Assembly: GCA_964589215.1 (NCBI GenBank)
Contig: CAZPUH010000758.1
Coordinates: 1 to 46,135, forward strand
Reading direction: 5' to 3'
Origin: an uncultured Myxococcales bacterium
GTDB taxonomy: Bacteria; Myxococcota_A; Polyangia; Fen-1088
Length of the DNA: 46,135 bases
Made by a program: the position numbers and the translations under genes. Positions 15,763 through 44,394 of the stretch are shown here, piece after piece. The notes beneath the pieces are model-generated. The model searched no databases, was not told where the DNA came from, and was given only the letters and a program-made list of their open reading frames with translations. Positions within the stretch are counted from its first letter, which is position 1. Each line of letters begins with the position of its first letter.

Positions 15763-16962
15763 CTAGCGGTCCCCGGCAGCCTGGATGCGCGTCCCCTCTT
15801 CGATCGCGTCCGAGGGCTGCACGATGACGGTATCGCCCTCCTTCACGTCACCTGTGACCGCGGTCCAGGCCCCGTCCGTCGGCCCGGCGTCGATCAAAGT
15901 CTTGCGGGCGCGTCCGTCGCGGACGACGAAGACCGCCCACCGCTGACCGGACCGGAACAGCGCGGGCGAGGGGACGCGGAGGACGTCCTTGCCCTCCCAG
16001 ACCACGACCGCCGCGTCGACACGGTAGTCGTGGCCAAGGCCGGGCGGCGGCGGCTCCGCCAGGTCGAGGACCACGTGGACCCGCTGCTCCTCGAGGCCGA
16101 GGGCGGAGACCTTGGTGAACGCGGCCGGATCGACCCGCTGGACTTCAGCCCGAATTGGCAGCGGACCACCCCACCCAGTGATCGTGGCGGCGGCCCCGGG
16201 ACGTACCTTCGCGGCGTCGCTTGAGAGCAGGTCGGCGTGCACCTCCATGCTGGTCACGTCCCCCACCTCGAGAAGGGGCGTTCCGGCCGCGACCGGCCCG
16301 GCGCTCTCCCGAACGACGCGAAGGATCCGACCGGCGACCGGCGACCGGACAGGCGTCACCTGTCCGGGCTTGACCAAAGCCGGGGCGACCACGGACCGCG
16401 CACGCACCAGCTCCGCCCGCGCGGCCCGGGCGGCCGCGGCGGCGCCTTCGGCGGCCCGACGACGGATCTCGGCCTCGTGCCCGCGGTGCTCGAGGTTGTT
16501 GCTCGGCATGGCTCCCTGCTCTACGAGCCGGCGCGTCGTCCCGAGCTCGCTCTCGGCGTGGGCGAGCGCCGCCTTGGCTTCCAGCTCGCCGGCGTCGGCG
16601 CGGGCAACGGCGGCTTCGGCGACACTGACGGCCGCGCTCGCCTCTGCGCGGGCTCGCGGATCGAGCGGCCGGGACGCGCCAGGGAGGATCTCGGCAACGA
16701 TCGCGTCAGCGGCGATCGTGTCGCCCGCGTGTACGTCGATCCGCTGCAACTGGCCGTCGACGGGCGAGAACACGACGTATAGCTCCTTGACTCGTGTGCG
16801 CCCCTCCGCGCTCGCCGTTGCGAAAAGAGCGCCGCGCTGGACCACGGCCGTCGCCACCCCGACGGCTGCGGTCCGCAGAGCCCAAGCGACGCCGGCGATC
16901 GCCAGGGCGACGATGCCGATCCAGAGGGCTGTCTTTCCGTGCTTGATCCCGGTCATGATCAT
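15763..16962 (-). CDS. HlyD-family periplasmic adaptor of the ABC exporter (MacA/DevB-like)
   Basis: N-terminal TM segment ALWIGIVALAIAGVAWAL, a long Ala/Arg/Glu coiled-coil and beta-barrel motifs (VRSPVAGRILRV). Its start overlaps the permease stop (ATGA). Confidence 0.85.
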   Translation of the reverse strand: MIMTGIKHGKTALWIGIVALAIAGVAWALRTAAVGVATAVVQRGALFATASAEGRTRVKELYVVFSPVDGQLQRIDVHAGDTIAADAIVAEILPGASRPLDPRARAEASAAVSVAEAAVARADAGELEAKAALAHAESELGTTRRLVEQGAMPSNNLEHRGHEAEIRRRAAEGAAAAARAARAELVRARSVVAPALVKPGQVTPVRSPVAGRILRVVRESAGPVAAGTPLLEVGDVTSMEVHADLLSSDAAKVRPGAAATITGWGGPLPIRAEVQRVDPAAFTKVSALGLEEQRVHVVLDLAEPPPPGLGHDYRVDAAVVVWEGKDVLRVPSPALFRSGQRWAVFVVRDGRARKTLIDAGPTDGAWTAVTGDVKEGDTVIVQPSDAIEEGTRIQAAGDR

Positions 16963-19319
16963 TCCTTGGCCTTGAGGACGGCGACGAGGTCGAGACGGTC
17001 GAGGCCTCGACGGACGACGAGGGCGGAAGCGGCGGCGGCGACGGCGAATACGACCACGGCGAAGGCGTACGTCGGCCGCGCCACGACGACGGGAAAGTGC
17101 ATGCTCACGCCTTCCATCGCGCGCATGAGCACGGACGAGAGCCAGTAACCGACCAGGAATCCCAGCGGGATGGCGGGCACCGCCAGGAACCCGACCTCGC
17201 CCAGCAGGATCCGGGAGACTTCGGCACGCGTGAAACCGAGCACCCGGAGGGTGGCGAGCTCGCGCCCACGCTCGGCCAGCGCGATCCGTGCGCTGTTGTA
17301 CACCACACCGAACGCGATGATCACCGAGAAGACGACCTCGATCTGACGGATGAATGCGAGGGCGCGATCGCTCATCGAGTGGAACGCGGCGATGGCGCCG
17401 AGGCGGGTCTCGACGGCGAGCGCGGCCGGCGTGCGCTTGAGGACGCCGTAGAGCTCGGACTTGCCGGCAGCGTCGACCGCGAGGCTGGCGCCCGAATAGG
17501 TATCCGGCTCACCCAGAAGCCGACCCAGCGCTCCGAGGTCCATGTAGGCGCCCAGGCCCAGGGGCTCGTCCACCACGTCTGCCAACGTCGCCGTGACGTT
17601 ACGCCGCTCGTTCTCCCGGATCTCCAACGAGACGAGGTCGCCGCGGCGGAGCCCGAAACGCCGGGCCAGCCAGGTGGTGAGGACGACGCCCTCTGACGGC
17701 GGCACCGCTACGCGTCCGTCCGACGCGACGACGCGGCGGAGCGCGCCTCCAGGGGGCAAGCCGACCAGGGTAACGTCCTGCGAGGCCCCGCGCCCGACCA
17801 CGCGCGCGGGAACGGCGCGAAAGGGTTCGGCCGCGCGCACGCCCGGCAGGGCGCGAAAGTCGGCCACCGTCCCCAGCGCGCGCGGATGAGCGAGTGCCAC
17901 GGTCACGTCCGCCCGCTCGGCGCGCTGGTAGCGAACTTCGATCATCTGGTTGATGGCGTCCGCCGACGAGCCGCCGAGAACCATGACCGCCACTGCCAGC
18001 GCCATTCCGGCCACTGCGAGGACCGACCGGAGCGGACGCCGGGTCAGGTTCCGCACGATCATGCGGGACGCAGGGCCCCAGAGACGCGGGACGCCCAGGC
18101 GGTCGAGCAGCGTCCGCCGGAAGGTAGGGACCTCCGCCGACATGGCGACGATGGGCGGCGTGGCCATCACCTTGCGGAGGCTCCCCAGGGTGCCGAGGGT
18201 CGCCGCTCCGAGCGCGACGCCGGCGGCGAGCGCAATGATCGCTGGCTCGGGCCGGAAGACCAGGACCGGGAAGCGAAAGAAGGAGGCGTAGAAGCGTGCC
18301 ATTCCCCGCCCGAGCCAAGCTCCGACAGGGATCCCCGCGGCGATTCCGCCGAGGACAATCAGGGCGGTCAGCTCGAGGTAATGCCAGGCGATCCGCCCCG
18401 ACCCGTAACCGAAGGCTTTCAACATGCCGATCTGCTCGCGCTGAGTGGACACCACACGCGAGAGGACGACGTTCACCAGGAAGGCCGCCACCAGGAGAAA
18501 GATCGACGGAATGATGAGCGCCATCGACCGCAGCTGCTCGATGTGCTCCTCGAGCATCACGTGCGAAGGATGGCTGCTGCGGCCGTAGGCTCCCTGGCCG
18601 CCGTAGGGCGCGAGCGCGCGGTCGAAGGCCGCGATCACCGCGTGTTCGTCGGTGCCCCGGGCTAGCGTGGCGGCGACGTCATTGAAGGCGCCTCTCAGGT
18701 CGACCAGCGCTTCGAGCTCTCCGCGGTCCATCCAGATGACGCCAAAGCGCCGATCGTCCACCGCCAGCGCGCCAGGTGGCATCGGCATCACGTACTCCGG
18801 CGAAAGCGCCACCCCCACCACGCGCAGGGACAGTCGGCGACCCGCCACGACGGCGGCGATGCGTTCGCCGAGCGCGAGATGGTTCTTCTCGGCGAAGGCC
18901 TCACTGACCAGGACCTCGTCGGCGCGTCCTGGCTCGACGTGGCGGCCCCGGCGAATGTGCAAGTCGTCCAGCGCATGCCCGATGTGGGCGGGGATCGACA
19001 CCACCAGAGCCGAGGCCGGTTCCGCGAGGGTGGGGATGTCCAGGACCGCACGCTCGACGATGCGCCCTTCAATCGCGGTCACCCCCGGGATGGCGGCCAG
19101 GTCCGGCAAGAGAGACAGAGGGGCGCGCGCGACGCCCGACCAGACCTGGGCGAAGCGCTGTTCCGTGTAGTAGCGGTGCTCCGACACCCGGAGAGAGCGG
19201 TAGGCGGTGACCGTGGCGACGAACAGCGACACGCCGGCGGCGACGACCAGCGCGATCGCCGCTGCCTGGGCGCGCAAGCGGCTCGCGTCACGGAATACCT
19301 TGCGGTCAAGTGCCTTCAT
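16959..19319 (-). CDS. FtsX-family ABC transporter permease with two FtsX domains (MacB/DevC-like); alternative GTG start at 19325
   Basis: About 786 aa. N-terminus [29 protein letters not shown] and two repeats of the FtsX permease core (REQIGMLKAFGYGSGRI; ERGRELATLRVLGFTRAEV). The ATG at 19319 overlaps the ATPase stop. Confidence 0.85.
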   Translation of the reverse strand: MKALDRKVFRDASRLRAQAAAIALVVAAGVSLFVATVTAYRSLRVSEHRYYTEQRFAQVWSGVARAPLSLLPDLAAIPGVTAIEGRIVERAVLDIPTLAEPASALVVSIPAHIGHALDDLHIRRGRHVEPGRADEVLVSEAFAEKNHLALGERIAAVVAGRRLSLRVVGVALSPEYVMPMPPGALAVDDRRFGVIWMDRGELEALVDLRGAFNDVAATLARGTDEHAVIAAFDRALAPYGGQGAYGRSSHPSHVMLEEHIEQLRSMALIIPSIFLLVAAFLVNVVLSRVVSTQREQIGMLKAFGYGSGRIAWHYLELTALIVLGGIAAGIPVGAWLGRGMARFYASFFRFPVLVFRPEPAIIALAAGVALGAATLGTLGSLRKVMATPPIVAMSAEVPTFRRTLLDRLGVPRLWGPASRMIVRNLTRRPLRSVLAVAGMALAVAVMVLGGSSADAINQMIEVRYQRAERADVTVALAHPRALGTVADFRALPGVRAAEPFRAVPARVVGRGASQDVTLVGLPPGGALRRVVASDGRVAVPPSEGVVLTTWLARRFGLRRGDLVSLEIRENERRNVTATLADVVDEPLGLGAYMDLGALGRLLGEPDTYSGASLAVDAAGKSELYGVLKRTPAALAVETRLGAIAAFHSMSDRALAFIRQIEVVFSVIIAFGVVYNSARIALAERGRELATLRVLGFTRAEVSRILLGEVGFLAVPAIPLGFLVGYWLSSVLMRAMEGVSMHFPVVVARPTYAFAVVVFAVAAAASALVVRRGLDRLDLVAVLKAKE

Positions 19320-20047
19320 CACCACTCCAGCGCCTCGGGCGAGGCGCGCGAGGCGTTCCGTCGGTCGGCGACGATGCGGCCGTCGGCGAGCTGAAGGACA
19401 CGGTCGGAGATCGCGGCGATCGCAGCGTTGTGGGTGATGACGGCGGTCGTCGTACCGAGCTCGCGGTTGACGTTGGCGATGGCGCCGAGGACGATCTTTC
19501 CTGTCGCGATATCGAGGGCGCCGGTCGGCTCGTCGCAGAGGAGGACGTCCGGGCGCTTGGCGATCGCTCGCGCGATGGCGACCCGCTGCTGTTCCCCGCC
19601 CGAGAGCTGCGCCGGGTAGTGATCCCGTCGCTCGGTCAGGCCGACCAGGGCCAGCGCGTCTTTCGGCGCGAGCGGATTGTCGGCGAGGTCGGTGACCAGC
19701 GCGACGTTCTCGATCGCGGTCAGGCTCGGGATCAGATTGTAGAACTGGAACACGAACCCCACGTGGTCGCGCCGGTAGACGGTGAGGGCGCGCTCGTTCG
19801 CGTTGGTCAGGTCGTGGTCGCGGTACCGGATCCGCCCGGAGGTCGGGACGTCGAGACCGCCGAGGATGTTGAGTAGGGTCGACTTCCCGCTTCCGGACGC
19901 GCCCAGCAGGACGACCATCTCGCCCGCCCCGAGCTGAAGGTCGATCCCGCGCAAGGCCGGAACCTCCACCTCCCCCATCCGGTAGGACTTGGTAATCCCT
20001 TCGGCAACGAGGACGGCGTCCACGACGTCACCCTCCCCGCCCCCCAC
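19319..20047 (-). CDS. ABC transporter ATP-binding protein (MacB/LolD-type)
   Basis: Walker [11 protein letters not shown]-loop, signature [14 protein letters not shown], Walker [14 protein letters not shown]-loop VITHN. Confidence 0.9.
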
Positions 20048-20734: not shown

Positions 20735-20746
20735 GACTCGATCCTT

Positions 20747-21037: not shown

Positions 21038-21166
21038 GCTCAGGCTCAGTGCATGGGTGGTGCCAGCACACACTTGTCTGAAGTCCGAGGTGAAGCAGCC
21101 AGCCCCGCGCAAGACCTACTGAGGCCGCCAGGGCTTGCGCAAATTTTGCAGCACGAGCGGCGTCGG

Positions 21167-23548
21167 TCAGATTCGGGCCCGGCGGAGCCGCAGCGCGTTT
21201 CCGACCACCGAGACGGAGCTGAGACTCATCGCCGCCGCCGCGATCATGGGGTTCAGCAGGATCCCGAACCAAGGATAGAGGACGCCCGCCGCCAACGGAA
21301 CGCCCGCGGCGTTGTAGACGAAGGCGAAGAACAGGTTCTGCTTGATGTTCCCTAGCGTTTGACGGCTGATGCGGCGGGCTCGGGCGATCGCGCGGAGGTC
21401 GCCTTTCACGAGGGTGACGCCGGCGCTCTCCATCGCGACGTCAGTTCCGGTTCCCATCGCGATCCCGACCTGGGCCTGCGCGAGTGCCGGGGCGTCGTTG
21501 ATGCCGTCGCCCGCCATGGCGACCACGCGGCCTTCTCCCTGCAGGCGCTTCACCACGGTCGCCTTCTGATCCGGCAGCACCTCGGCGACCACCTCGTCGA
21601 TCTTCAGTTTCCGCGCGACCGCTTCGGCGGTCGTTCGACTGTCGCCAGTCAGCATGACGATGCGAACGCCCTCTTCGTGGAGCGCCCGCATCGCCTCGGG
21701 GGTGCTGTCCTTGACTGGGTCGGCCACGCCCAAAAGCCCCGCTGGGCGCCCGTCGACCACCACGAAGATCACCGTCTGGGCGTCCTGTCGGAGTTCCTCC
21801 GCTCGCGTGGCGAACGGCGTCGGATCGACGCCCAGGTCGGCGAGCAGAACGCGGTTGCCGACGGCGACGGCCCGACCCTCTACCGTCCCCTTCACCCCTT
21901 TGCCATTGATGGCTTCGAACCCCATTGCCGCGGGAATGGCAACACCGCGTTCCTCTGTTCCTTTGACGATCGCGGTCGCTAGCGGATGCTCGCTACCGCG
22001 CTCGAGGGCAGCTGCAAACCGCAAGAGATCCGTCTCCATGGTCCCGCCGATCGGCGTCAGGCTGACCAGCTTGGGCTTCCCTTCGGTGAGCGTTCCCGTC
22101 TTGTCGACCACCAGGGTGTCGACCTTACGCAGGACCTCGATCGCCTCCGCGTTCCGAAAGAGCACGCCCGTCGTCGCCCCACGGCCCATCGCGACCATGA
22201 TCGACATCGGCGTCGCGAGGCCGAGGGCGCACGGGCAGGCAATGATCAGCACGGCGACGGCGTTGATGAGCGCATGTGCGGCACGGGGCTCCGGCCCGAC
22301 CAGTGACCAGACGATGAACGTCACCACGGCAATGGCGATGACGACCGGCACGAAATAGCCGGCCACCACGTCGGCCAGCTTCTGGATGGGCGCGCGGCTG
22401 CGCTGGGCCTCGGCGACCATCGCCACGATGCGGGAGAGCAATGTGTCAGAGCCGACCTTCTCGGCCCGGATGACCAGGGTCCCGGAGGTGTTCAGTGTGG
22501 CACCGACCACCTTGGCGCCGATCTCCTTCTGGACGGGGATCGGCTCACCCGTCACCATCGACTCATCGACATGGCTCCGTCCTTCGGTCACGACGCCATC
22601 GACCGGAACCTTCTCGCCCGGCCGAACCCGGAGCAGATCGCCAACCTGCACAGCCTCGAGCGGCACGTCGGCCTCGCTGCCGTCGGCGTTGACGCGACGG
22701 GCGAGCTTGGGCGCAAGGCCGAGCAGCTTGCGGATGGCGGCACCGGTCGCGCTCCTTGCCCTGAGCTCCAGCACCTGACCGAGTAGGATGAGCGTGACGA
22801 TCACGCCCGCCGCCTCGAAGTAGACACCGACCTGGCCGTCGTGCTCCCGGAAAGACGACGGAAAGATGCCGGGCGCGACCGCAGCAATCACGCTGTACGA
22901 GAAGGCGACCGAAACGCCCAGGCCGATCAGCGTGAACATGTTGAGACTGCGGTGACGGACCGATTGGATTGCCCGAACGTAAAACGGCCACGCGGACCAT
23001 GTGCAGACGGGCGTGGCGAGCGCCAGCTCGACCCAGGTACGCAACCTCGGCGAGAGGATCTGCCCGAAACGCGCGCCCAGGATCAGCTCGCCCATAGCCA
23101 GCAGAACCAGCGGGGCCGTTAGGGCGGTGGCGGTCCAGAACCGACGCGACATGTCGGCCAGCTCCGGATTGTCGTGCGGCTCGGCGGTGATCGTCCGTGG
23201 CTCGAGCGCCATGCCGCATATTGGGCAGCTACCCGGCGCGTCGCGCACGATTTGCGGATGCATTGGGCAGGTCCACTCGACCTTGCCCGTTGGAGGTGGA
23301 GGTGGAGCGGGCTTGGGCGGCTCGGTACCGGGATCGACGAAGGCCCGAGGGTTCTGCTGGAACCGTTCGAGACACCGCGGGCCGCAGAAACGGTAGGTCT
23401 TTCCTGCATATTCGCTGTGGAGAGGCGCGTCCGCTGGCACGTTCATGCCGCAGACGGGGTCCTTCCCGAGCGGCTGTGTCGCAAGGGGAAGTCGTTTCGG
23501 GTTCCCCCCCGACGGTCGCGTTGGATGATCGTGTTGGTGGTGGTCCAT
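21167..23548 (-). CDS. copA: Cu(I)/Ag(I)-translocating P1B-type ATPase
   Basis: 793 aa. Motifs: CPC ([12 protein letters not shown]), DKTGTLT, TGES-equivalent [14 protein letters not shown] in [13 protein letters not shown] and MSLSS in TM6. The N-terminus has a His-rich start, a YHS/TRASH-like DPVCGMNV...YRFCGPRC and WTCPMHPQI...CPICGM. Confidence 0.92.
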
Positions 23549-23634
23549 GGTCCCGTCTCCGTTCGTCGATCGCCTCTTACATAGGGGAGACGCACGATGC
23601 TATCGGGCCTTACACCCCGACGTCCCGGTTCAGT

Positions 23635-24342
23635 TCATTGACCGGGGCCGCGAGCGCCGGTATTCGCGCAGTACTCTGCCGCTTGCCGCGTCCGGACGTG
23701 AACCTCACGGGAGGCGACTGGGTTTTCTGGCCGAATGTCCACCGCCAGACCGGCCGGCACCGGATGAACCAACGCCGTGACGTTCCGGACCTGGAGCGGG
23801 CAGCTGTCCTTGTTGTCGTCCGCATATCCAACCACCGCGTTGCGTGCCAGATGACAGTTGACGACGCGCTGAAGCCAGTCCGCGGTCATGTTGGGCAACG
23901 GTCGGAACACCACCCGCACACCGCTCAACGTATCGCCTCGGTCGGCGATTTCCAGCGGCTCGACCGACACGATGTCCTCGAGGTGCAGAAACGGGCTGAT
24001 GTCGCGCTCCGCGGCTGGAACCCCGATGCAGGCTTGTGCCTCGGCATCCCGAAGAGCTTGCGAGGCCGCGCGATGCTTCTCGGCTTGCTCGCGGTGCTTG
24101 CGTGCCTCGACAAAACTCCTCTGCGTGGGGTTGCGAAAGGACGTCCAGTATCGATAACAGGCGTCCTGCGATTCGTAGCCGGGACAGGCGGCTTCTGCCC
24201 GCTGCTGCGCCGAGTCCGCGCGGGCCGCCTCCTGTCGGGCCGCGTTCTCATGTTCCGCCGCAGTCATCGTTCCGGTTCGCGTCGAAGCGCACCCGATGAC
24301 GAGTGGCACCGACATCACGAAGACCACCTTTGAGATAATCAT
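23635..24342 (-). CDS. hypothetical lipoprotein
   Basis: Start set at the ATG preceded by GGAGGG. Lipobox VPLVIGC. Helical N-terminal region with AEHENAARQ...EKHRAASQA, and 7 Cys in total (six after the lipobox Cys). The upstream part of the 373-aa track ORF is low-complexity R/T/S sequence and was dropped. Confidence 0.6.
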   Translation of the reverse strand: MIISKVVFVMSVPLVIGCASTRTGTMTAAEHENAARQEAARADSAQQRAEAACPGYESQDACYRYWTSFRNPTQRSFVEARKHREQAEKHRAASQALRDAEAQACIGVPAAERDISPFLHLEDIVSVEPLEIADRGDTLSGVRVVFRPLPNMTADWLQRVVNCHLARNAVVGYADDNKDSCPLQVRNVTALVHPVPAGLAVDIRPENPVASREVHVRTRQAAEYCANTGARGPGQ

Positions 24343-24496
24343 GGCTTCGTCCCTCCGTTCCCGGAGTTCGTGCAACCGACATGCCGGCCACAGCCGCTCT
24401 CTCCGAAAACGAGTCCTCAGGTCCTTCGTCGGCTTTGAGTCGGTAGACCTTGCGCGGCCCGAGGACCCTCCGGCAACGGTTGCGTTCAAGTGTCGC

Positions 24497-25849
24497 TCAT
24501 ACGGCCTGGTCGTCCTGGGCGGCCGGCGGATGCTCGACGTCGATCCCGTCGCGCCGAAGGTCGCCGCCGTTCGCTTGGCTGGCGAGCGTGCCCGGCGGGT
24601 TTTCGTACCAGCCCGGGTCTTTGTAGCTCCGGATCCCGTCGCGCACTTTGAGGACGGTGAACATCCCGCCCATGGTGATGGTGTCGTGCTTCCCCTTCCC
24701 ACCCAGCATCGGGATGCTGTTCGTGGGGACGGGCATTCCCATGTCGCCCATGTCACCCATTCCCGTCTGGCCCATCGTCATGTAGCCGGGAACCACCTGG
24801 CGCATCTTCTCGTCGAGGTTTCCAGGTTTTACGCCGATCAAGTTCGGCGATCCATGCCCCATCTGGTTCATCACGTGGTGGGTCATGTGGCAATGCATCG
24901 CCCAGTCCCCGGGCTCGTCGGCGATGAACTCGATTGTCCGCGTGCTGCCCGTCGGGACTAGAACGGTCGTCTCCGGCCACTGGGCGGAGGGGGCGATCTC
25001 GCCGCCGTCGGTCTCCGTGATGTGGAACGAGTGGCCGTGGAGGTGGATCGGGTGATGGTCCATCGCGCTCAGGTTGCCGATCCGGATGCGGACGCGTTGC
25101 CCGGTCCGAACGACGAGCGGCGCCGTCCCCGGGAACGCCTTCGCATTCATCGTCAGCATGTTGAACTCGGTCATCTCGTTCGGGTTCGGCCGCTTGGCGC
25201 CGGGGTCGACGCGCCACTCGTGCAGCATGATCGCGAAGTCCCGATCAACCCGCTGCCGGGGATGGCGCGGGTGGATGACAAACATTCCCGTCATCCCGAG
25301 CGCCATCTGCGTCATCTCGTCATGGTGCGAGTGGTACATGGCGGTGCCGCTCTGGCGCAGCGTGAACTCGTACTTGAACGTCTCACCCGGCGCGATCGCC
25401 TTCTGGGTCAGGCCGCCGACGCCGTCCATTCCGTTGACCAGCTTCAGGCCGTGCCAGTGGACCGTCGTGGCGGCCGGCAGCCGATTGGTCACGTAGACGC
25501 GGACCCGGTCGCCCTCGACAGCCTCGATCAGTGGACCGTGGACGCGCCCGTTGTACCCCCAGCACTTCACTTTGAGACCAGGCGCCAGCTCGTGATCGAC
25601 CTCCTCGGCCACCATGTGAAACACCTTCACCCCGTCGACCACCCTCCACGGGAGCTTCGCGCCGTTCGGCACCGTCACCGGCCGGTAGTCGCGGCCGGGT
25701 TTCCCGGGGGCCGCATTGGAGCCGGTCTTCCCGCGGGCGGCGGCCCAGGTGGGCTGAGCCGTCGAGAGGATCGCTCCGCCGACCGTACCGGCGACGAGCA
25801 GGGAACGGCGAGACAGCCCCGTGTCGTCCTTCTTCGAATCAGTGGCCAT
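24497..25849 (-). CDS. multicopper oxidase, CopA/PcoA type, with Tat signal and a Met-rich segment
   Basis: Start at the ATG preceded by GGAGA. Tat motif SRRSLLVAG. Copper motifs VHWHGL, MYHSHHDE, HPIHLHGH and MHCHMTHHVMNQMG. The Met-rich stretch is MTMGQTGMGDMGDMGMP. Confidence 0.9.
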   Translation of the reverse strand: MATDSKKDDTGLSRRSLLVAGTVGGAILSTAQPTWAAARGKTGSNAAPGKPGRDYRPVTVPNGAKLPWRVVDGVKVFHMVAEEVDHELAPGLKVKCWGYNGRVHGPLIEAVEGDRVRVYVTNRLPAATTVHWHGLKLVNGMDGVGGLTQKAIAPGETFKYEFTLRQSGTAMYHSHHDEMTQMALGMTGMFVIHPRHPRQRVDRDFAIMLHEWRVDPGAKRPNPNEMTEFNMLTMNAKAFPGTAPLVVRTGQRVRIRIGNLSAMDHHPIHLHGHSFHITETDGGEIAPSAQWPETTVLVPTGSTRTIEFIADEPGDWAMHCHMTHHVMNQMGHGSPNLIGVKPGNLDEKMRQVVPGYMTMGQTGMGDMGDMGMPVPTNSIPMLGGKGKHDTITMGGMFTVLKVRDGIRSYKDPGWYENPPGTLASQANGGDLRRDGIDVEHPPAAQDDQAV

Positions 25850-27221
25850 GGTGGTCTCCTTCGGATGCAGATACCGGGGGCAGCGTTCCTCCGAGAGCGC
25901 GCGCCAGCTCGGCGCGGGCGATCCAGTAGTCGCGCAGCGCTTCGAGATAGCCGCGGCGCGCGTCGACCTCACCCTGTTTCGCTGCGAGAAGCTGATACGC
26001 GCTCAGGAACATGCCGTTGTAGTGGAGGAGCGCCTGCTCGGTGACCGTCTTTCGAAGCGGGAGGAGGACCTCGCGGTAATGTGTCACCACGTCGCGGCCG
26101 GTGCTCAAACGGAGCGCGGCCAGGCGGACCTCGGAGCGGGCATCTATCGCGACCTCCTGGAGCCGGCGTTCCATCTCGCGGCGCTGGGCCTCGAGCCGGG
26201 CGATCACAGCCTGTCGCTGATCGAAGATGGGCAGCTCGATGACCAAGTTGGGCCCGAGTAGCAGCGGCCCGTTCGGGTCCTGGTGCATGTCCACGCCGAC
26301 ATCGAGCCGACCGACCAACCGCGTCGTCCGCGCCAGGTCGACCGCCTTGGAGAGGAGCGCGGCCCGCCGCTTCGCGACGGCCACGTCGAGGCGCCGGCTC
26401 ATCGCGAAGGGCTCGAGGTGCTCGAGCTTGGGGTCGGCGTCAGGCACCGAAGGAAGCTGCTCCGCGAAACGCCAGCTTGTTGTCCCGCCCCACAGGCCGA
26501 GCAGCCTGTTCACCCGCTCGCGCGCTTCAAGAAGGTCGATCTCCTCGCGCGCCAGATCGAGCTTTGCCTGCTGGTACTCCGCCGCCTGTGTCGCTCGATC
26601 TAGCTCGCTGACGTTGCCTGCTTCCATTTGCCGCGCCGACAGGTCGGCGGCCGCGCCGGCGCCTTCCACGACGGTCCGGCGGAAAGCGACCAGCTCCACG
26701 TCGGCTTGCGCGACGACGAACGCCTTTTCGGCCTCCGCCGCCACCTCGAGCGCCCGGTTGGCGACGTTCAACGTCGCGGCCTCGAACTCCTCGCGCGCGA
26801 TCTGCTTGCGAAGCGGCAGGACGATGAGGTCAAGGAAGTCCTGCACCAGCGACACGCGCACCTCGTCGGTCTCCCCGTTGTTGAGACGGAAACCTAGGTC
26901 GAGACCAAAGGCCGGGTTCTTCAAGAGTCCCGCCTGCACCATGTCGGCCTGAGAAATGCCCAGCTCTTCGTAGGTCGCCTGCAGGCTCGGGTTGTTCACG
27001 AGCGCGATCTCGACAGCGCGATCGCGAGTCAGTCCCTGGGTGGTGACCCTCCGCACCCAGTCCGCGATCTGGGCTTCGTCAGGCGGTCCCTTCTCCCACC
27101 GAGTCTTGTGGCCCGTCCGCTCACTGACCACCGACGAGACTTGGTCGTGCCCGCGCTCGGGAGACACGCTGGCGCATGCACCGAGCGTGACCGCTATTAG
27201 GGCTAGTCCGAACCGTTTCAC
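25839..27221 (-). CDS. TolC-family outer membrane efflux lipoprotein
   Basis: The GTG start overlaps the upstream stop (GTGA), giving VKRFGLALIAVTLGACAS (lipobox). The two-repeat OMF architecture is present. The 3' end overlaps the MCO start by 11 nt. Confidence 0.85.
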   Translation of the reverse strand: MKRFGLALIAVTLGACASVSPERGHDQVSSVVSERTGHKTRWEKGPPDEAQIADWVRRVTTQGLTRDRAVEIALVNNPSLQATYEELGISQADMVQAGLLKNPAFGLDLGFRLNNGETDEVRVSLVQDFLDLIVLPLRKQIAREEFEAATLNVANRALEVAAEAEKAFVVAQADVELVAFRRTVVEGAGAAADLSARQMEAGNVSELDRATQAAEYQQAKLDLAREEIDLLEARERVNRLLGLWGGTTSWRFAEQLPSVPDADPKLEHLEPFAMSRRLDVAVAKRRAALLSKAVDLARTTRLVGRLDVGVDMHQDPNGPLLLGPNLVIELPIFDQRQAVIARLEAQRREMERRLQEVAIDARSEVRLAALRLSTGRDVVTHYREVLLPLRKTVTEQALLHYNGMFLSAYQLLAAKQGEVDARRGYLEALRDYWIARAELARALGGTLPPVSASEGDHHGH

Positions 27222-27541
27222 GGCTTCGACTCTGGCTGCTTTGGAACCAGCGTCATCCCGCACTTGGGGCATTTGCCCGGCTTGTCGGAGATCACCTCTG
27301 GGTGCATCGGGCATGTGTAGAGCGTCGCCTCCGGCTTCGCGGGTGCTTCGTCGGGGGTCGGCTTCGCCGCCGGCACCGGCGGCTGGTTCAGCGCTCCCAC
27401 GCTCAGCGATGGCGATTCAACCGCCTGCGGGTTCGACGGATCGAGCGTGACCGGACGCGGTGGCGGCTCGGTCGCGCAGGCACCGATCGCGACAAGAAAC
27501 GGGAGAAGGAACAGTGATTTGCAGGGTGTTCTAGTGAGCAT
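27218..27541 (-). CDS. lipoprotein with a CPMHP-type heavy-metal-binding zinc-ribbon domain
   Basis: 107 aa. Lipobox FLVAIGAC, a Pro-rich linker, then LYTCPMHPEVISDKPGKCPKCGMTLVP. The same motif occurs in the ATPase N-terminus. Confidence 0.75.
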   Translation of the reverse strand: MLTRTPCKSLFLLPFLVAIGACATEPPPRPVTLDPSNPQAVESPSLSVGALNQPPVPAAKPTPDEAPAKPEATLYTCPMHPEVISDKPGKCPKCGMTLVPKQPESKP

Positions 27542-27992
27542 TTGACTTGTCCTTGGAGGCTCTCTTGGCGGCGTCATAGGCGTCCGCCCAGGCGAGCATT
27601 CGGGTGAGGTCGTCGCCGGTCACGACACCGGGGTCGTCCGACGGCATGGTGGGCTTGGCTCCGCCCGCGCCCAGGACCTTGCGGACGACGGCCCCCGCCT
27701 CGTCGGCGTGATGCCCGCCGAAGGGGTAGGCGTCCATCGCGACGTGGACGAGGGCTTTGGTTTTCGATTTCTTGCCGCCGGTCGTGTGGCACCTGAAGCA
27801 GTGGCGCTCGAAGGCGGGCTTTGCACGTTCGAACGTGGCGATCTCGGCCGGGGAGGGCTCGTGAGGACGGCCGACGCCATGCCCCTGATGGGAATACGCG
27901 ATCGGCACAGCCACAACGACGAGCGCTGTGGCGACGAGGGCAGCCCGCACGGCCGCTCTCGTCACGACGATTCCAATCGACATGACGGTCAC
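27531..27992 (-). CDS. membrane-anchored CXXCH (putative c-type heme-binding) protein
   Basis: 153 aa. N-terminal TM segment ALVATALVVVAVPIAY and a single CXXCH in FERHCFRCHTTGGKKSKTKAL. Its 3' end overlaps the next gene start by 11 nt. Confidence 0.5.
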   Translation of the reverse strand: MTVMSIGIVVTRAAVRAALVATALVVVAVPIAYSHQGHGVGRPHEPSPAEIATFERAKPAFERHCFRCHTTGGKKSKTKALVHVAMDAYPFGGHHADEAGAVVRKVLGAGGAKPTMPSDDPGVVTGDDLTRMLAWADAYDAAKRASKDKSNAH

Positions 27993-28067
27993 CTCCTGAG
28001 ATTCGAGTTCGCCGTTCGTGATGGCGCAGACGCGCGCGAGGCGCGCGTTACGCGGGAGCGGCGCGGC

Positions 28068-28466
28068 TCAGATCAGGAACGAACGCTTCAGGAGACGGAG
28101 CGGTGGCCCGAGGGGGGGGGGCCGAACGCGATGAAATGGGAGGTCAGGGGCCTGGTGCACCGGTAGCTCAGAGCTCAACGTCGACAGCTGCGGCTGTCCG
28201 TCGAAACGAACCGGCCCGTCGACTTGGTGCTCAGAGAGCAGCTTGGGGAGCTCCACAATCTTGATGAGGCAGCAACCCTGCTCCCGCAGCTGCGCCATCG
28301 GCACGGCCTGCTTCTGATCGCGGGACGGACAGCAGGTCTCTTCGTCCATCATCGCGCCGGTGAAGCGACAGACAAGCGCGCGCACCTGAGTCGGAAGGAC
28401 GCTCGCTCCGAACAGCGGCACCAGCGCCACCATCCAGAGCAGCTTCGACCATCGGCCCTTCGACAT
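28068..28466 (-). CDS. hypothetical membrane-anchored Cys-containing protein downstream of the CorE-like sigma gene
   Basis: 132 aa. TM segment LLWMVALVPLFGASVL, Cys pairs LVCRFTG...ETCCP...QGCCL and a Pro-rich C-terminus FHRVRPPPLGPPL encoded through a C10 run. Confidence 0.5.
   Translation of the reverse strand: MSKGRWSKLLWMVALVPLFGASVLPTQVRALVCRFTGAMMDEETCCPSRDQKQAVPMAQLREQGCCLIKIVELPKLLSEHQVDGPVRFDGQPQLSTLSSELPVHQAPDLPFHRVRPPPLGPPLRLLKRSFLI
28112..28121. repeat. G10/C10 homopolymer inside the 3' end of CDS 28068-28466
   Basis: Read directly: a ggggggggg g at 28112-28121. On the coding strand it encodes the PPP of RVRPPPLG. Confidence 0.9.
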
Positions 28467-28526
28467 CGGGGACGACTCTGACCAGCATCGCCTCAGCTGT
28501 CAATCCGTGCGGAGTCCCCGCCCGTG

Positions 28527-29063
28527 TCACGCGCGCCGACAGGTGCAGTCCAGACAGCCGTGTTCCGAACAGGCGCCGCACACCTCTACGAGCCGCCGCC
28601 TCAGCGCCGCGCGGGCGCGGTGAAGGCGAACGGTCGCGTTGTTGGCCGTCAGCCCCCCTTCGTTCGCGACCTCGACGATCGGCCGTTCCTCCAGTTCCAC
28701 CGCCTTCACGATGTCGGCGTACTCGGGCTTGAGCCCGGGCAGGACGGCGCTCATGCAAGTGCAGAGATTCTGACGGAATTCCGGCTCGAAGGTCGGCTCC
28801 GCTTCCTTCGCGAGCTGTGCGTGGGCCTCGCTTTCCGTTCCCACCCGCCGGTGGTGGTCGATGATCGCGTTTCGGAGCAGCTGATAGAACCAGGCCACGA
28901 CGCTCCCGTCGTCTCGGACCTGGTCCAGCTTCGGGAGGCTCCTCGCGTACGCCTCCTGCAGGATGTCCTCGGCGACCGCCGCACTCTCGACCCGCGGTCG
29001 AAGGAAGTCGAGGAACCGCCGGTGGTTTTCGGCCAGGAGCCGCTCGCGGGATTGGACGGTCAT
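28527..29063 (-). CDS. CorE-like ECF sigma factor with a C-terminal Cys-rich domain
   Basis: 178 aa from the ATG at 29063. Sigma-2 region (VAEDILQEAYARS...VAWFYQLLRNAIIDHHRR), sigma-4 region (YADIVKAVELEERPIVEVANEGGLTANNATVRLHRAR), linker CTC, and C-terminal CGACSEHGCLDCTC. No separate anti-sigma gene is recognisable. Confidence 0.8.
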   Translation of the reverse strand: MTVQSRERLLAENHRRFLDFLRPRVESAAVAEDILQEAYARSLPKLDQVRDDGSVVAWFYQLLRNAIIDHHRRVGTESEAHAQLAKEAEPTFEPEFRQNLCTCMSAVLPGLKPEYADIVKAVELEERPIVEVANEGGLTANNATVRLHRARAALRRRLVEVCGACSEHGCLDCTCRRA

Positions 29064-29145
29064 CGCCCTTAGCTTGGCATGGGACGCAAGGACGGCGTGC
29101 CGAACCCTCGAACCCTTTTCGCCGCGGTTGGCTCTCACGGTCAAA

Positions 29146-29379
29146 ATGACCTCAGAGAATGCAATTCGCGCCCTGGCAGGGGCGCTGGTCCTCGCCGGCC
29201 TCGTCCTTTCGCGGCTGATCAACCCCTGGTGGTTACTTCTCACGGCTTTCGTGGGCGTGAACCTTCTGCAGTCCGCATTCACGAAGTTTTGCCCGGCGGA
29301 AATCGTCATGCGCCGCCTGGGATGGTTCACAGCGTGCACCACCACTGACCGGCCTGCGCGGCACACCGAGGGCAGCTAA
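29146..29379 (+). CDS. DUF2892 (YgaP-like) small membrane protein
   Basis: 77 aa: NAIRALAGALVLAGLVLSRL..WWLLLTAFVGVNLLQSAFTKFCPAE. Its stop abuts the MFP GTG start. Confidence 0.65.
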   Translation: MTSENAIRALAGALVLAGLVLSRLINPWWLLLTAFVGVNLLQSAFTKFCPAEIVMRRLGWFTACTTTDRPARHTEGS

Positions 29380-30420
29380 GTGCGCCAGCCGCGCCGCATC
29401 GCAGGGGGCCTGATGGCAGTCGCCGCCGTGGCCGTTTCGGCGTGCGGCTCGAAGCCGCCACGCGCGCCATCGGAGCCTCTGCCAACACGATCCGTGCGGA
29501 CCGAACGCGCCCGCCTGGACGCGAGCTCTTCGGGCGAAGCGGCCATCGGCACAGTCCGGGCGCGCAACTCGGCGGCCATATCTGCGACGGTGGTTGGCAA
29601 GGTCCGCGAGCTGAACGTGACACTCGGCCGCCGCGTGCGGGCGGGCGACGTTCTGGTTCGAATCTCGGCGGACGAAATCGGCGCCAAGCTGGACCAGACG
29701 GAGGCGATGTATGCGCGCGCCAAGCTCGAGTTCGAACGAGCCAAAGGCCTGCTCGAGCGCGAGGCGATCCCGCGGGTGCAGTACGACGCCGCGGCGGCCG
29801 ACTTCCGGGTCGCCACGGCTAGGCGGGCCGAGGCCGGGGCGATGGCCGACCATACGGTGCTCCGCGCGCCGTTCGCTGGCGTCGTCAGCGCCAAGCTCGC
29901 CAACGTCGGGGATACGGCCATGCCCGGCCAGACGCTCGTCGTTCTCGAGGATCCGCGCGCGCTGCGGCTCGAGGCCACGGTGCCTGAGATCGCCGCGCAG
30001 GCGATGCGGACGGGGCAGACGGTGTCGGTCCTCATCGATGGGGCCCAGCGCCCGGTGACCGGCACCGTGGCAGAGATCAGCCCGGCGGCGGACCCGATGA
30101 GCCGCACGGTGCTGGTGAAGATCGAGCTACCGGCCGACCCGTCGATCCACCCCGGCTTACTCGGCCGGTTGCTGCTGCCCGCATCTCCTGGTCAGGCACG
30201 CTCGGTCGTGGTCCCCAGCGGAACTGTCGTGCGCCGCGGCCAGCTCGACGAGGTCTTCGTTGTCGACCGGGGACGGGCCCGCTTGCGGTTGGTCAAAACT
30301 GGACGTGTCAAAGGGGACGGCGCGACGGAGATCCTGTCCGGCCTCACCGAAGGCGAGACGGTGGTCATCTCCGACCTCGCGGAATTGGTGGACGGGCAAG
30401 CTGTGGAGGCGCGCCTGTGA
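29380..30420 (+). CDS. RND efflux periplasmic adaptor (MFP) lipoprotein
   Basis: Lipobox AVAVSACG. Lipoyl/barrel motifs ([37 protein letters not shown]). GTGA overlap with the RND gene. Confidence 0.85.
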
Positions 30421-33400
30421 GTCGCGAGCCGCATCGCCAGGGCATCGCGGGCCGGATCGCGCGCGCGTTCATCGATTCGAAGCTGACGCCGCTCTTCATC
30501 GTCACCTCCGTCCTCCTGGGTCTGGTGGCCGTTCTTGCACTTCCGCGCGAGGAGGAACCGCAGATCAAGGTTCCCATGGTCGACGTGTCACTTTCCATGC
30601 CCGGCGCGACTGCCGAGGAGGTCGAGAGCCGTGTCTCCGCTCCCGTCGAGCGGTTGCTCTGGGAGATTCCAGGTGTCGAGTATGTCTACAGCACGAGCCA
30701 GCCGGGCCGTTCCCTGACGATCGTCCGGTTCAAGGTCGGCGAGGACGTGGAGAGGTCGCTGGTGAAGCTCCACCAGAAGCTCGACGCCAACGCCGATCGC
30801 ATTCCGCCGGGCGTGTCGCCCCCGCTCATCAAGGCGCGCTCCATCGACGACGTGCCGATCCTCGCGCTCACCTTCCACTCGCGCAATTACGACCACCTGG
30901 CCCTGCGCCGCATCGCCGCCCAGGTCGACGCCGAGATCAAACGGGTCCCCGAGGTGTCGGAGGCGACCCTCATCGGCGGCCTGCGGCGTCAGGTCCGCGC
31001 TCGGCTCGATCCCGCGGCGCTCGCGGCCCGGTCGCTGGCAGCGACCAACGTCACCCGCGTGCTGGCGCAGGCGAACAGTCAGGCCTCGGTCGGATCCCTC
31101 ACGCTCGCGGACCAGGACGTTCTGGTGCAGACGGGCGCCTTCTTCACAAGCGCCGAGGATGTCGGGACGGCCGTCGTCGGCGTCTACCAGGGCGCCCCCG
31201 TCCATCTCCGCGATGTCGCCAAGATCGCCGACGAAGCCGAGGAACCGAGCCAGTACGTGTTCTTTGGCAAAGGCGCGGCGACTTCGGGTACCGCCGACGA
31301 GGAGCCCGCCGTCACTCTGTCGATCGCCAAGCGCCCAGGAACCAACGCGATCAAGGTGGCGGACGCTGTCCTCGAACGGCTCGATCGCATGCGGCCAACC
31401 GCGCTCCCGGGTGATGTGTCGATCTCCATCACCCGTCACTACGGCGCGACCGCCGCGGAGAAGTCGAACGAGCTTCTTCTGCACATGGGGATCGCCGTGG
31501 TCAGCGTCTCCCTGCTCATCCTGTTCATGCTCGGGTGGCGCGAGTCCCTGGTGGTCGCCATCGCCATCCCGGCGACCCTCGCGCTGACGCTGCTCGTTTT
31601 CTACCTCGGCGGCTACACGCTCAACCGGATCACGCTGTTCGCCTTGATCTTCTCGATCGGCATCCTGGTGGACGACGCGATCGTCGTCGTCGAGAACGTC
31701 GTTCGGCACCGCGATCTGCCAGAGAACCGAGGACGTTCACTCAAGGAGGTCGCCGTCCATGCCGTCGCCGAGGTCGGCAACCCGACGATATTGGCCACGC
31801 TCGCGGTGATGGCCGCCGTCTTACCAATGGCGTTCGTGGGCGGACTGATGGGGCCGTACATGCGCCCGATTCCGATTGGCTCGTCCGCCGCGATGGCGTT
31901 CTCGCTGATGGTCGCGTTCGTGGTGACTCCCTGGGCGGCGGCGCGCCTGCTGAAGCGCTCGCGCGCAACTGGCGACGGTGGCCGCGGCGGTCATCGGACC
32001 GGGCGAGAAGACTTCGGTACCCGCGCATACCGCCGGGTGATGGCGCGTCTGGTGGGGCGTGCGTGGTGGCGCTGGGGCTTCCTCGGCCTCATTGCGGCCC
32101 TTCTGGTGGCTGCGATCTCCCTCGTTCCGGTGGGCGCCGCCCGCGTGAAGATGCTCCCCTACGACAACAAGAGCGAGTTTCAGGTGATCCTGAACATGCC
32201 CGAGGGGAGCTCGCTCGAGCGCACGGCCGCCGCCGCGCGAGACATCGCGGATGCGATCCGCGGCGAGCGTGAGGTCACCGACTATCAGACTTACGTCGGC
32301 ATCGCCTCGCCGTTCAACTTCAACGGCCTGGTCCGCCATTACTATCTGCGCCAAGGGCCCAGCGTCGCCGACATTCAGGTGAACCTCCTGCCGAAGGGCG
32401 ACCGGGACGCCCAGAGCCACGACATCGCCAAGCGCATCCGACCGGCCGTCGCGGCGATCGCGGCCCGCTACGGCGCGCGGGTGGCGGTGGCCGAGGTGCC
32501 ACCGGGGCCGCCCGTGCTGCAGACCCTGGTCGCGGAGGTCTACGCCCCGGACGCCCCTTCTCGGCAGCGGCTTGCACGCGCGATGCGCGACATCTTCCAG
32601 AAGACGCCAGGAGTGGTCGACGTCGACTGGTACGTCGAGGATCCGCACCCCAAGCAGCGGCTGGTCGTCGACAAGGAGAAGGCCGCCCTGCACGGCATCG
32701 GGGCGGACACCATCGCGGCTACCCTGGAGATCGCTGTGGGCGGCCGCCCGGCGGGCCTGCTTCACGTCCCGCGCGAACAAGAGGACGTCGAGATCATGCT
32801 CGACGTCCCCCGCACCCTGCGCACGTCGGTGGCGGACCTGCTCGCTCTTCGCGTGCCGGACGCCAGCGGCCACACGCTGGTGCCGCTGGGCGAGCTCGTC
32901 CGCGTCGAACAGACGACGGAAGACCAGAGCATCTATCACAAGAACCTGCTACCGGTCGTCTATGTGACCGCCGACGTCGCGGGTGGCGCGGAGAGCTCCG
33001 CCTACTCCGTACTCGCCATGAACCGGGCCGTGGCGGCGCTGGATGCCCAGGACTTCGGAGGCGCGAGCGGCAAGCTCGGCGTCTACAATTCCGAGCAACC
33101 GAAGAGCGACCTCGCTCCGGCGATCAAGTGGGACGGCGAGTGGCACATCACGCTCGAGGTGTTCCGTGACCTCGGCGCCGCCTTCGCCGTGGTGCTGGTG
33201 CTCATCTACGTGCTGCTCGTGGGCTGGTTCCGGTCGTTTGCCACGCCGCTCGTCGTGATGGCGGCCATCCCGTTCTCGCTCGTGGGGATCCTGCCGGCAC
33301 ACGCGGCGATGGGCGCCTTCTTCACGGCGACCTCCATGATTGGATTCATGGCCGGGGCCGGGATTGTCGTTCGCAATTCGATCATCCTCGTCGATTTCAT

Positions 33401-33746
33401 CGAGGCCCGCCTCGGTGAAGGTATGCCGCTCGACGCGGCGGTCGTCGATGCCGGCGCTGTCCGCTTCCGCCCGATGCTGCTGACCGCTCTGGCGGTCGTC
33501 GCCGGCGCCTCGGTCATACTGTTCGACCCGATCTTCCAGGGTCTGGCCCTCTCGCTCATGGCTGGCGAACTCGCGTCGCTCTTCATCAGCCGCATGGCCG
33601 TACCCGTTCTCTACTCGATGCTGGCACGACGAAGAACGGCGCAGAGCACCGCGCCAGTCGTCGCGAAGCTCGCCCTGACTGGCCTCCCTGCGGAGCTAGG
33701 GCCTGCACACGGGCCCCGACCTCTATCCGAGGGCGGCGTCTCGTAG
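30417..33746 (+). CDS. RND transporter permease, AcrB-like (HAE-type TM4 motif)
   Basis: 1109 aa. TM4 reads [20 protein letters not shown], the AcrB-like [10 protein letters not shown] form rather than the DFG-DGA-VEN or CusA forms. It has 12-TM architecture with two large loops. Confidence 0.85.
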
Positions 33747-36107: not shown

Positions 36108-36196
36108 GGAGCCCTTTACTCGGGCGAACCGCATTGTTTGCGCGAGCCCCTCGTTCGGGCGCCCGACTGGCGCGCAAGTTGCTCCATGAGAAAACG

Positions 36197-37477: not shown

Positions 37478-37502
37478 GCCCCGAGCGACGGAGTGAAGGA
37501 CC

Positions 37503-42066: not shown

Positions 42067-44390
<2,324 letters not shown>

Positions 44391-44394
<4 letters not shown>

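Follow-up and report, generated by a model that had tools for sequence, protein, structure and literature searches.

A window of 46,135 nucleotides (the whole stretch of DNA analysed; contig CAZPUH010000758.1 of an uncultured Myxococcales bacterium) contains four consecutive minus-strand genes that encode a small exported protein with a CXXCH motif, a lipoprotein with an HMBD domain, a TolC-family outer-membrane factor (OMF) lipoprotein and a multicopper oxidase (MCO) exported by the twin-arginine translocation (TAT) pathway. We consider it likely, with a probability of roughly three in four, that this block is a copper-stress envelope operon of the known OMF-MCO kind that is extended upstream by a translationally coupled CXXCH/HMBD sub-module. 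The module is nested, because the OMF-MCO core, which is often accompanied by a small lipoprotein, is widespread whereas the CXXCH-HMBD accessory is confined to this clade. The original prediction had proposed an undescribed module for copper detoxification or export, but the same OMF-MCO operon is documented in Myxococcus xanthus and Sinorhizobium meliloti. The novelty is thus confined to the two small accessory genes, and the CXXCH-HMBD sub-module appears to be undescribed in the literature that we found.

Four overlapping genes form a translationally coupled chain

The four genes of the block are the following.

24497..25849, minus strand: TAT-exported two-domain MCO of 450 amino acids with a Met-rich C-terminal extension (Pfam Cu-oxidase_3 and Cu-oxidase_2)
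25839..27221, minus strand: TolC-family OMF lipoprotein of 460 amino acids (Pfam OEP PF02321, 91.5 bits, two repeats)
27218..27541, minus strand: HMBD lipoprotein of 107 amino acids (YTCPMHPEV...CPKCGM; lipobox IGAC; Pfam PF19335)
27531..27983, minus strand: small exported CXXCH protein of 150 amino acids (CXXCH motif, 259 homologues detected)

Direct reading of the minus strand bore out the predicted chain of overlaps of 11, 4 and 11 nucleotides (nt). First, the TAG stop codon of the CXXCH gene (27533-27531) overlaps the start of the HMBD lipoprotein gene as ATGCTCACTAG (11 nt). Second, the TGA stop codon of the HMBD lipoprotein gene (27541-27218) and the GTG start codon of the OMF gene share the four letters GTGA. 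Third, the TGA stop codon of the OMF gene (27221-25839) overlaps the ATG start codon of the MCO gene as ATGGCCACTGA (11 nt), and the MCO gene (24497-25849) is the last of the chain. Shine-Dalgarno-like sequences precede three of the four starts (the ATG codons of the CXXCH, HMBD and MCO genes, with AGGAGG, AAGGAC and GAAGGAGA, respectively), and no clear Shine-Dalgarno sequence was seen before the GTG of the OMF gene. The CXXCH gene had been placed at 27531-27992; its stop at 27531 holds, but the GTG at 27992 is a poor choice of start and the gene likely begins at the ATG at 27983, since its homologues begin with MS. A scan of positions 23400-29500 for sigma-70 promoters and terminators found no promoter, nor any terminator on the minus strand within the block, and this lack of internal terminators is weakly consistent with a single transcript. 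The tight translational coupling suggests that the proteins are made in matched amounts, and the proposal of a co-expressed four-gene copper module beside a gene for a CorE-like sigma factor is supported.

The OMF and MCO genes are linked across phyla

We scanned one genome per species for the OMF protein, which gave 54 loci that were mapped by tblastn with all window proteins (loci are designated L plus a number). We also used the MCO as a query against metagenomes, where at least 573 relatives were confirmed among the first 600 pattern matches and the best 80 were kept. The MCO gene lies directly downstream of the OMF gene in 43 of the 44 genome loci whose contig permits the test. A candidate case of an OMF without an MCO (L011) was rejected as an exception: the MCO is there, split over several frames (pseudogene or assembly error). 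At the metagenome loci the OMF gene adjoins the MCO gene in every testable case (64 of 64), with the OMF upstream in 47 and downstream in 17. The pairing of an outer-membrane duct with an oxidase had been called unusual, but for this MCO family a neighbouring OMF gene is the norm.

The OMF-anchored genome loci belong to Myxococcus, Corallococcus, Pyxidicoccus, Citreicoccus and many metagenome-assembled genomes (MAGs) of Polyangia, joined at 31-34% OMF identity by MAGs of Planctomycetales, Betaproteobacteria, Rhodospirillaceae and Gammaproteobacteria. In total, the pair was found in genomes of six groups (Myxococcota, Alpha-, Beta- and Gammaproteobacteria, Planctomycetes and Chlamydiae). Start/stop overlaps between the OMF and MCO genes, of 4 to about 23 nt, occur in Polyangia, Myxococcus, Simkania, a MAG of Betaproteobacteria and others. 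As many as 391 plasmids likewise carry the MCO family, and on all five that were inspected (Simkania pSn, Roseobacter litoralis pRLO149_83, S. medicae pMl5, S. meliloti pSymA and, from the match table, Burkholderia) an OMF gene lies directly upstream of the MCO gene, the two being annotated on the first four of these records as "TolC family protein" and then "copper oxidase". The same co-oriented OMF-to-MCO order is seen in L141, L142, L139, L140 and L032. Uniqueness of the arrangement to this genome, which would have refuted the original prediction, is clearly contradicted by this recurrence, and we regard the pairing as real biology beyond chance.

On the conjugative chlamydial plasmid pSn of Simkania negevensis (L140, 63110-65741), a lone OMF-MCO pair with an 8-nt overlap is flanked on one side by a recombinase and a Tn3 transposase and on the other by a mer operon. 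Since the pair stands alone by a transposase, the OMF and MCO genes appear to move as a unit.

Local pumps do not account for the pairing in general

The absence of genes for a resistance-nodulation-division (RND) permease or a membrane-fusion protein (MFP) from the block, which had been part of the original prediction, is literally true inside the four-gene chain, but two systems of this sort that lack an OMF gene of their own lie at most 8 kb away.

29380..33746, plus strand: MFP (29380-30420) and RND permease (30417-33746) without an OMF gene (Pfam, NCBIfam)
15763..20047, minus strand: MacB-type ABC exporter without an OMF gene, comprising an ATPase (19319-20047), a permease (16959-19325) and an MFP (15763-16962) (Pfam)

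The MFP-RND pair is divergent from the sigma factor gene and begins about 1.4 kb upstream of the block; its RND permease is a divergent one, scoring 457 bits against the best NCBIfam RND model versus a cutoff of 1250. The OMF might therefore be a shared exit duct for these OMF-less local pumps, in which case its link to the MCO would amount to co-regulation. TolC-type OMFs commonly serve pumps that are encoded elsewhere, as TolC of Escherichia coli does. The other two RND systems of the window, which are full OMF-MFP-RND sets (3652-9384 and 36134-42052; Pfam/NCBIfam), have an OMF of their own. As for the MacB system, L005 keeps it in synteny with the block and L048 has a MacB-MFP pair. The order DUF2933-ICMT-ABC-MacB is kept in L005, where the DNA fetched stops inside the MacB permease gene.

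By contrast, adjacency of OMF and MCO is near-universal and that of pumps is not: the MacB system is absent from most other loci, and of the 31 genome loci flanked by 5 kb or more on each side (10 kb per side were fetched) 12 have neither an RND nor a MacB gene, so that service to pumps cannot explain the pairing generally. The MFP-RND pair is missing at this position from the closest syntenic loci, L005 and L059, and the assignment of the OMF to this divergent pair was rejected as a general explanation on that ground and on the following one. In the Myxococcaceae loci that have an MFP-RND system nearby, a separate OMF-like match precedes the RND genes wherever the region is covered. The solitary, transposon-borne pair of Simkania pSn and the conservation of the OMF-MCO start/stop overlap across phyla speak in the same direction. 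Service of the OMF to the downstream ABC system, which had been suggested as an option, is thus possible for this window but fails as a general reason for the pairing, and the shared-duct explanation as a whole is, in our estimation, rather unlikely without being far-fetched.

The outer-membrane factor is a divergent TolC-family protein

The OMF has an LGAC lipobox and is 29% identical over its full length to the TolC family protein of the S. medicae operon. Searched with phmmer against PDB sequences it gave nothing at E < 0.01, and it falls below all NCBIfam cutoffs. Judged by its sequence it is a divergent but clear member of the TolC family. It matches OEP PF02321 only, and not the CopB family PF05275 for which it was also examined. 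The block itself encodes no membrane-fusion adaptor or inner-membrane transporter, although partners that are encoded elsewhere are possible. Tn5 mutants of Bradyrhizobium tolC and copA were considered as a further line of evidence and not used, as adjacency of the two genes is unstated and the tolC mutant is sensitive to several metals.

The lack of an adaptor gene raises a second explanation, in which the block is a pump-independent unit whose trimeric MCO and/or small lipoprotein dock on and gate the trimeric OMF, so that copper, once oxidised, would leave the periplasm with no inner-membrane transporter involved, as a functional analogue of PcoA-PcoB. Two-domain MCOs (SLAC/mgLAC) and OMFs (TolC) are both trimers. 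Loci that have the pair but no pump gene in the flanking DNA fetched recur, the two genes travel together as a mobile unit, their tight translational coupling suggests matched amounts, and a small lipoprotein gene is coupled to the OMF gene by 4 nt here as well as (through an unrelated lipoprotein of 75 amino acids) in Sinorhizobium, with a 1-nt overlap in Roseobacter. Against this, Simkania pSn has no small lipoprotein gene on the same strand, and passive exit of Cu(II) would not need a duct of 460 amino acids, since porins suffice. We know of no precedent for an OMF that is opened without a membrane-fusion adaptor. On balance such a unit seems unlikely. Its most elaborate form, a pump-free 3:3 complex of OMF, trimeric MCO and small lipoprotein that would oxidise and vent copper and be fed by a haem/copper redox chaperone made up of the CXXCH and HMBD proteins, we likewise hold to be improbable.

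The MCO is complete and the CXXCH protein is mostly absent from its loci

The MCO carries a twin-arginine signal (SRRSLL) and all four copper motifs (HWH131, HSH173, HPIHLH266 and HCH319-x3-H325-x4-M330). Motifs 2 and 3 are only 93 residues apart and the protein aligns in a single stretch over most of the length of the two-domain structures 2zwn, 3g5w and 3gdc, which identifies it as a two-domain MCO that has its T1 site in the C-terminal domain. A conserved C-terminal extension of about 120 amino acids in the same protein contains a Met-rich run (MGQTGMGDMGDMGM). By sequence comparison the family is that of CuoB/CuoC and of S. meliloti CueO ("copper oxidase"), with 53% identity to the S. medicae copper oxidase and 59-71% to the M. 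xanthus loci.

The small CXXCH protein was aligned with 30 homologues. C62, C65, H66, H80 and M83 and a YPFGGHH motif (Y86-P-F-x-G-H91-H92) are invariant, and T112-M113-P114 is nearly so. After their hydrophobic N-terminus the homologues have A-x-A and then, almost invariably, a His, which suggests a cleaved signal peptide that would leave an N-terminal His. A membrane anchor, as had been proposed for this protein, is therefore doubtful. In an AlphaFold2 (AF2) model (pLDDT 81, pTM 0.70) the order of N-terminal helix, CXXCH, Met loop and C-terminal helix is that of class-I cytochromes c. The protein scores 23.6 bits against PF13442, below the cutoff of 27, and the cytochrome c models are all sub-threshold. 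A Foldseek search of the model against the PDB returned no match at E < 1, and a profile search against PDB sequences retrieved only c-type cytochromes, at sub-significant E values of 0.03-0.7. The protein is thus probably a class-I-like monohaem cytochrome c with extra conserved His/Met motifs; because the Foldseek search was empty and the profile matches sub-significant, this assignment is probable and not proven.

The HMBD lipoprotein matches PF19335 over residues 75-101 at 62.3 bits (cutoff 23.6) and, on the strength of this domain, is a probable periplasmic metal-binding partner; elsewhere the HMBD domain is found at the N-terminus of CusB-like adaptors and of P1B ATPases. Two counts of OMF genes with enough upstream sequence gave an HMBD gene as the immediate upstream neighbour in 21/54 and 29/60 cases, and both are undercounts on account of the shortness of the domain (about 28 residues). 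The two small proteins are also joined physically, in that three CXXCH homologues are natural fusions with a C-terminal HMBD domain. One fused CXXCH-HMBD protein of 197 amino acids (P0064) is encoded directly upstream of an OEP-MCO pair, where the window has two genes. At L143 (7001-7805), a CXXCH-HMBD pair coupled by 11 nt lies beside a P1B ATPase gene without an OMF-MCO pair. The full four-gene chain was seen only in close relatives (L005, L006, L059, L062 and L144). Most OMF-MCO loci lack a CXXCH gene, and other members of the CXXCH family lie in unrelated surroundings.

These observations bear on a third explanation, in which the CXXCH protein donates electrons to the MCO as part of a periplasmic chain from cytochrome c to O2 that serves redox protection or protection against reactive oxygen species rather than copper export. 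The CXXCH gene is co-transcribed and coupled with the others, and both its CXXCH motif and the Met of the TMP motif are conserved. NirK, to which two-domain MCOs bear a resemblance, receives its electrons from cytochromes, and ncgABC-nirK of Nitrosomonas europaea encodes a two-domain MCO together with cytochromes c. Conversely, an obligate donor sits poorly with a gene that is missing from most OMF-MCO loci, that also occurs with HMBD alone or by itself, and whose fusion partner is an HMBD domain and not an MCO; the MCO moreover has a Met-rich tail, and homologous operons show copper phenotypes or copper induction. An electron path from the CXXCH protein to the MCO for Cu(I) oxidation, as originally proposed, is also unneeded: the four copper motifs are complete and the MCO reduces O2 as its acceptor, so that it needs no cytochrome for this reaction. 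The CXXCH protein would accordingly not be, as we infer, an obligatory electron partner of the MCO, and we regard a redox chain of this kind as very unlikely.

A CorE-like sigma factor gene lies upstream of the block

Upstream of the chain and in the same orientation lie the following features.

28527..29102, minus strand: CorE-like extracytoplasmic function (ECF) sigma factor with ECF44 features (Pfam Sigma70_r2 and r4_2; NCBIfam ECF models)
28068..28466, minus strand: Cys-rich exported or membrane protein of 132 amino acids (CRFTG..CCP..GCC), the first gene upstream of the chain
28013..28020, minus strand: CACGAACG, a candidate ECF-type -35 element in the spacer between the 132-amino-acid and CXXCH genes

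ECF44 has two hallmarks, a CxC motif that lies between the sigma2 and sigma4.2 regions and a Cys-rich domain at the C-terminus (PMC4937300). The sigma factor of the window shows both, the first as CTC and the second as the tail VCGACSEHGCLDCTC, which has five Cys versus six in CorE and CorE2. The proximity of a CorE-like sigma factor gene, on which the original prediction had drawn, is thereby upheld, with one gene (28068-28466) between it and the chain. The sigma factor gene is syntenic in L005 and L059, and its product is likely the copper-responsive regulator of the block.

The intervening 132-amino-acid protein has no Pfam or NCBIfam match. Homologues were found by tblastn upstream of the CXXCH or HMBD gene in L005, L059, L062 and L067, and in L144 an unannotated 132-amino-acid gene stands at the same place and aligns at its 3' end. 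Just upstream of the ATG of this gene, a TTGACA-17-CAGAGT arrangement is kept in 4/4 loci. In the non-coding spacer that follows the gene, the 8-mer C[A/G]CGAACG is present in 5/5 syntenic loci (as CACGAACG in four and as CGCGAACG in L005), where it sits 35-55 nt upstream of the CXXCH start and contains the AAC typical of ECF -35 elements. Over the window the 8-mer CRCGAACG is not clearly enriched (21 matches versus 12.9 expected; 4 of 100 shuffles reach 21).

Proposed mechanism of the copper-stress operon

Read as a copper-stress operon of the OMF-MCO kind, the block would work as follows. At rising copper, the CorE-like ECF44 sigma factor, encoded two genes upstream, would switch the operon on, as its hallmarks, synteny and the M. 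xanthus precedent suggest. The neighbouring P1B ATPase would, from its family assignment, expel Cu(I) to the periplasm, and there the TAT-exported MCO, whose motifs are all present, would oxidise Cu(I) to Cu(II) with O2, an activity that we ascribe to it from its homologues CuoB and CueO. The OMF lipoprotein, which is linked to the MCO on the same message and by translational coupling, would then provide a putative route out of the periplasm; here we lean by analogy on the copper phenotype of the homologous omp gene of S. meliloti. The HMBD lipoprotein may bind copper and pass it to the OMF or the MCO. Finally, the CXXCH protein would be a lineage-restricted accessory, likely a periplasmic protein that binds haem c or copper and acts with the HMBD lipoprotein, as its fusions and patchy distribution suggest. 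We infer the direction of copper flow, the roles of the small proteins, haem binding and the opening of the OMF.

Several points weigh against this scheme. Without an adaptor, a TolC-family channel is as a rule shut, and no adaptor gene is part of the module. The CorE-type promoter consists of a conserved 8-mer only and is offered as a lead rather than a result, and copper induction of this block is presumed from that of its homologues. Haem on the CXXCH protein is likewise a prediction and unproven, the Pfam scores being sub-threshold and the Foldseek search without a match. Lastly, because the accessory genes differ between lineages, the small proteins may not share one role.

The block belongs to a metal-resistance island

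The window is a metal-resistance island that opens with a tRNA-Asp gene (65-140) and a tyrosine integrase gene (250-1410). As the integrase directly follows the tRNA gene, the whole region looks like a tRNA-integrated genomic island; no attR copy of the 3' end of tRNA-Asp was found within the window. Besides the RND systems, the island carries genes for a CDF transporter, a second MCO and a fusion of an ECF sigma factor with an anti-sigma factor (Pfam/NCBIfam). The block itself is part of a longer minus-strand string of genes in the same direction that runs from the ECF44-type sigma factor through the 132-amino-acid Cys-rich protein and the four-gene chain to a 214-amino-acid lipoprotein, and continues with a P1B ATPase, DUF2933, an ICMT-family protein and the MacB-type ABC exporter with its MFP. 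The two genes next to the block are these.

23635..24279, minus strand: lipoprotein of 214 amino acids without a family, between the MCO and the ATPase (lipobox VIGC)
21167..23548, minus strand: P1B-type heavy-metal ATPase whose N-terminus bears YHS and HMBD domains (Pfam E1-E2_ATPase, Hydrolase, HMBD and YHS)

The 214-amino-acid lipoprotein has no Pfam or NCBIfam match and is linked to the MCO only sporadically in other loci (L089 and L116). The P1B ATPase gene adjoins the OMF-MCO pair in many loci, and its product is, by its domains, a probable pump of Cu(I) from the cytoplasm to the periplasm that would feed the module. Downstream of the ATPase gene, the DUF2933, ICMT-family and MacB-type genes occupy 15763-21112 on the minus strand.

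The second MCO of the window (10935-12491, minus strand) is 91% identical to the MCO at L003 (10228-11787), where the gene for a CXXCH-family homologue lies two genes upstream of that MCO; a single 697-kb MAG contig carries both L003 and L011, the locus with the OMF and the frameshifted MCO. At the far end of the window (42389-45615, plus strand), genes of the ATP synthase alpha/beta family and for an A chain directly follow the last RND system and may be an alternative (N-type) ATPase operon on the island.

Significance of the pairing and of the sub-module

Of the copper-resistance gene pairs seen in this analysis, the OMF-MCO pair is one of the commonest. The question of how a TolC-type channel acts without a dedicated adaptor or pump was raised by M. 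xanthus and S. meliloti and not by the window, but the survey sharpens it: in this MCO family the tie to the OMF is practically obligatory, does not depend on RND or MacB genes and often includes translational coupling. The CXXCH-HMBD sub-module, with its conserved CXXCH family, offers a cheap target for haem and copper-binding assays.

Comparison with known copper-resistance systems

In PcoA-PcoB and CopA-CopB, a periplasmic MCO is encoded beside an outer-membrane protein in one copper-induced operon. The block of the window shares this logic of an oxidase with an outer-membrane partner. The partners themselves differ: PcoB and CopB are beta-barrels of PF05275 without sequence relationship to the TolC-family OMF of the window, and PcoA and CopA are three-domain MCOs of about 600 amino acids as opposed to the two-domain MCO found here. 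With CusCFBA and CzcCBA the block has in common a lipoprotein OMF of the same superfamily and an HMBD domain, which is typical of the N-terminus of CusB-like adaptors; in contrast to these systems, it encodes no RND permease or MFP.

The CXXCH protein resembles by description MXAN_3414, a PF13442 cytochrome c encoded in the curA operon of M. xanthus, in that both are small c-type cytochrome-like proteins of a copper-resistance cluster; 28 of the 50 best homologues of MXAN_3414 are reported to be linked to copper genes. MXAN_3414 adjoins copA and not an HMBD-OMF-MCO set, and a tblastn search with the CXXCH protein of the window against the Myxococcus loci fetched gave no match.

The M. xanthus locus MXAN_3424 (OMF)-cuoB (MXAN_3425)-corE (MXAN_3426), in copper region 2 of that species, comes from the same phylum and shares with the window the OMF-to-MCO order and an ECF44 neighbour. 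There, a CorE-binding promoter lies upstream of the OMF gene MXAN_3424, and a cuoB-lacZ reporter is induced by copper in a CorE-dependent manner; the authors note that one gene lies between PcuoB and cuoB (PMC3107203). In the M. xanthus copper literature we found no examination of the role of MXAN_3424. In M. xanthus AM003 (L032) the order is P1B ATPase, OMF, MCO, CorE-like sigma factor, HMBD, OMF and MCO. The window pair is closer to the HMBD-preceded pair of this locus (52% identity for the OMF and 71% for the MCO) than to the MXAN_3424-cuoB pair (31% and 59%, respectively). By tblastn, the M. xanthus loci fetched differ from the window in having neither a CXXCH gene nor a gene for the 132-amino-acid Cys-rich protein, and their pairs do not overlap.

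The Sinorhizobium operons show the same core with other accessories. On S. medicae pMl5 and S. meliloti pSymA a 75-amino-acid lipoprotein comes first, followed by a TolC-family protein, a copper oxidase, an azurin-like protein and lastly a protein that binds copper, so that, as in the window, a TolC-family OMF gene lies directly upstream of that for a TAT copper oxidase of about 450 amino acids. The window MCO aligns with that of S. medicae pMl5 at 53% identity (E 3e-160) over its full length including the C-terminal extension, and the OMF at 29% (E 6e-45), also over its full length; for these two genes S. meliloti pSymA is 97-98% identical to the S. medicae pMl5 reference. Whereas Sinorhizobium has a non-HMBD lipoprotein upstream and azurin-like and copper-binding proteins downstream, the pair of the window is preceded by genes for the CXXCH protein and the HMBD lipoprotein and followed by one for an unrelated lipoprotein; the Sinorhizobium OMF and MCO genes are separated by a 13-nt gap instead of overlapping, and the regulator there is not a CorE-type sigma factor.

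The lipoproteins of about 75 amino acids in the alphaproteobacterial omp-cueO operons are different ones without an HMBD motif (L141, 4318-4545; L139, 5327-5548), and their genes overlap the TolC-family gene by 4 nt in Sinorhizobium and by 1 nt in Roseobacter. From this comparison of sequences, a small lipoprotein partner of the OMF may be a recurring feature.

Copper biology is known for the S. meliloti operon from two reports on strain CCNWSX0020. According to these, copper induces omp (SM0020_18792) 646-fold and cueO (SM0020_18797) 243-fold, an omp mutant is hypersensitive to copper, and the operon of omp, cueO, an azurin-like gene and a copper chaperone gene is modelled such that the oxidase makes Cu(II) and Omp exports it (PMC4932525, PMC6266702). 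The idea of an oxidase joined to an exit through the outer membrane, with which the block of the window was first interpreted, thus matches the model that has been published for homologous operons.

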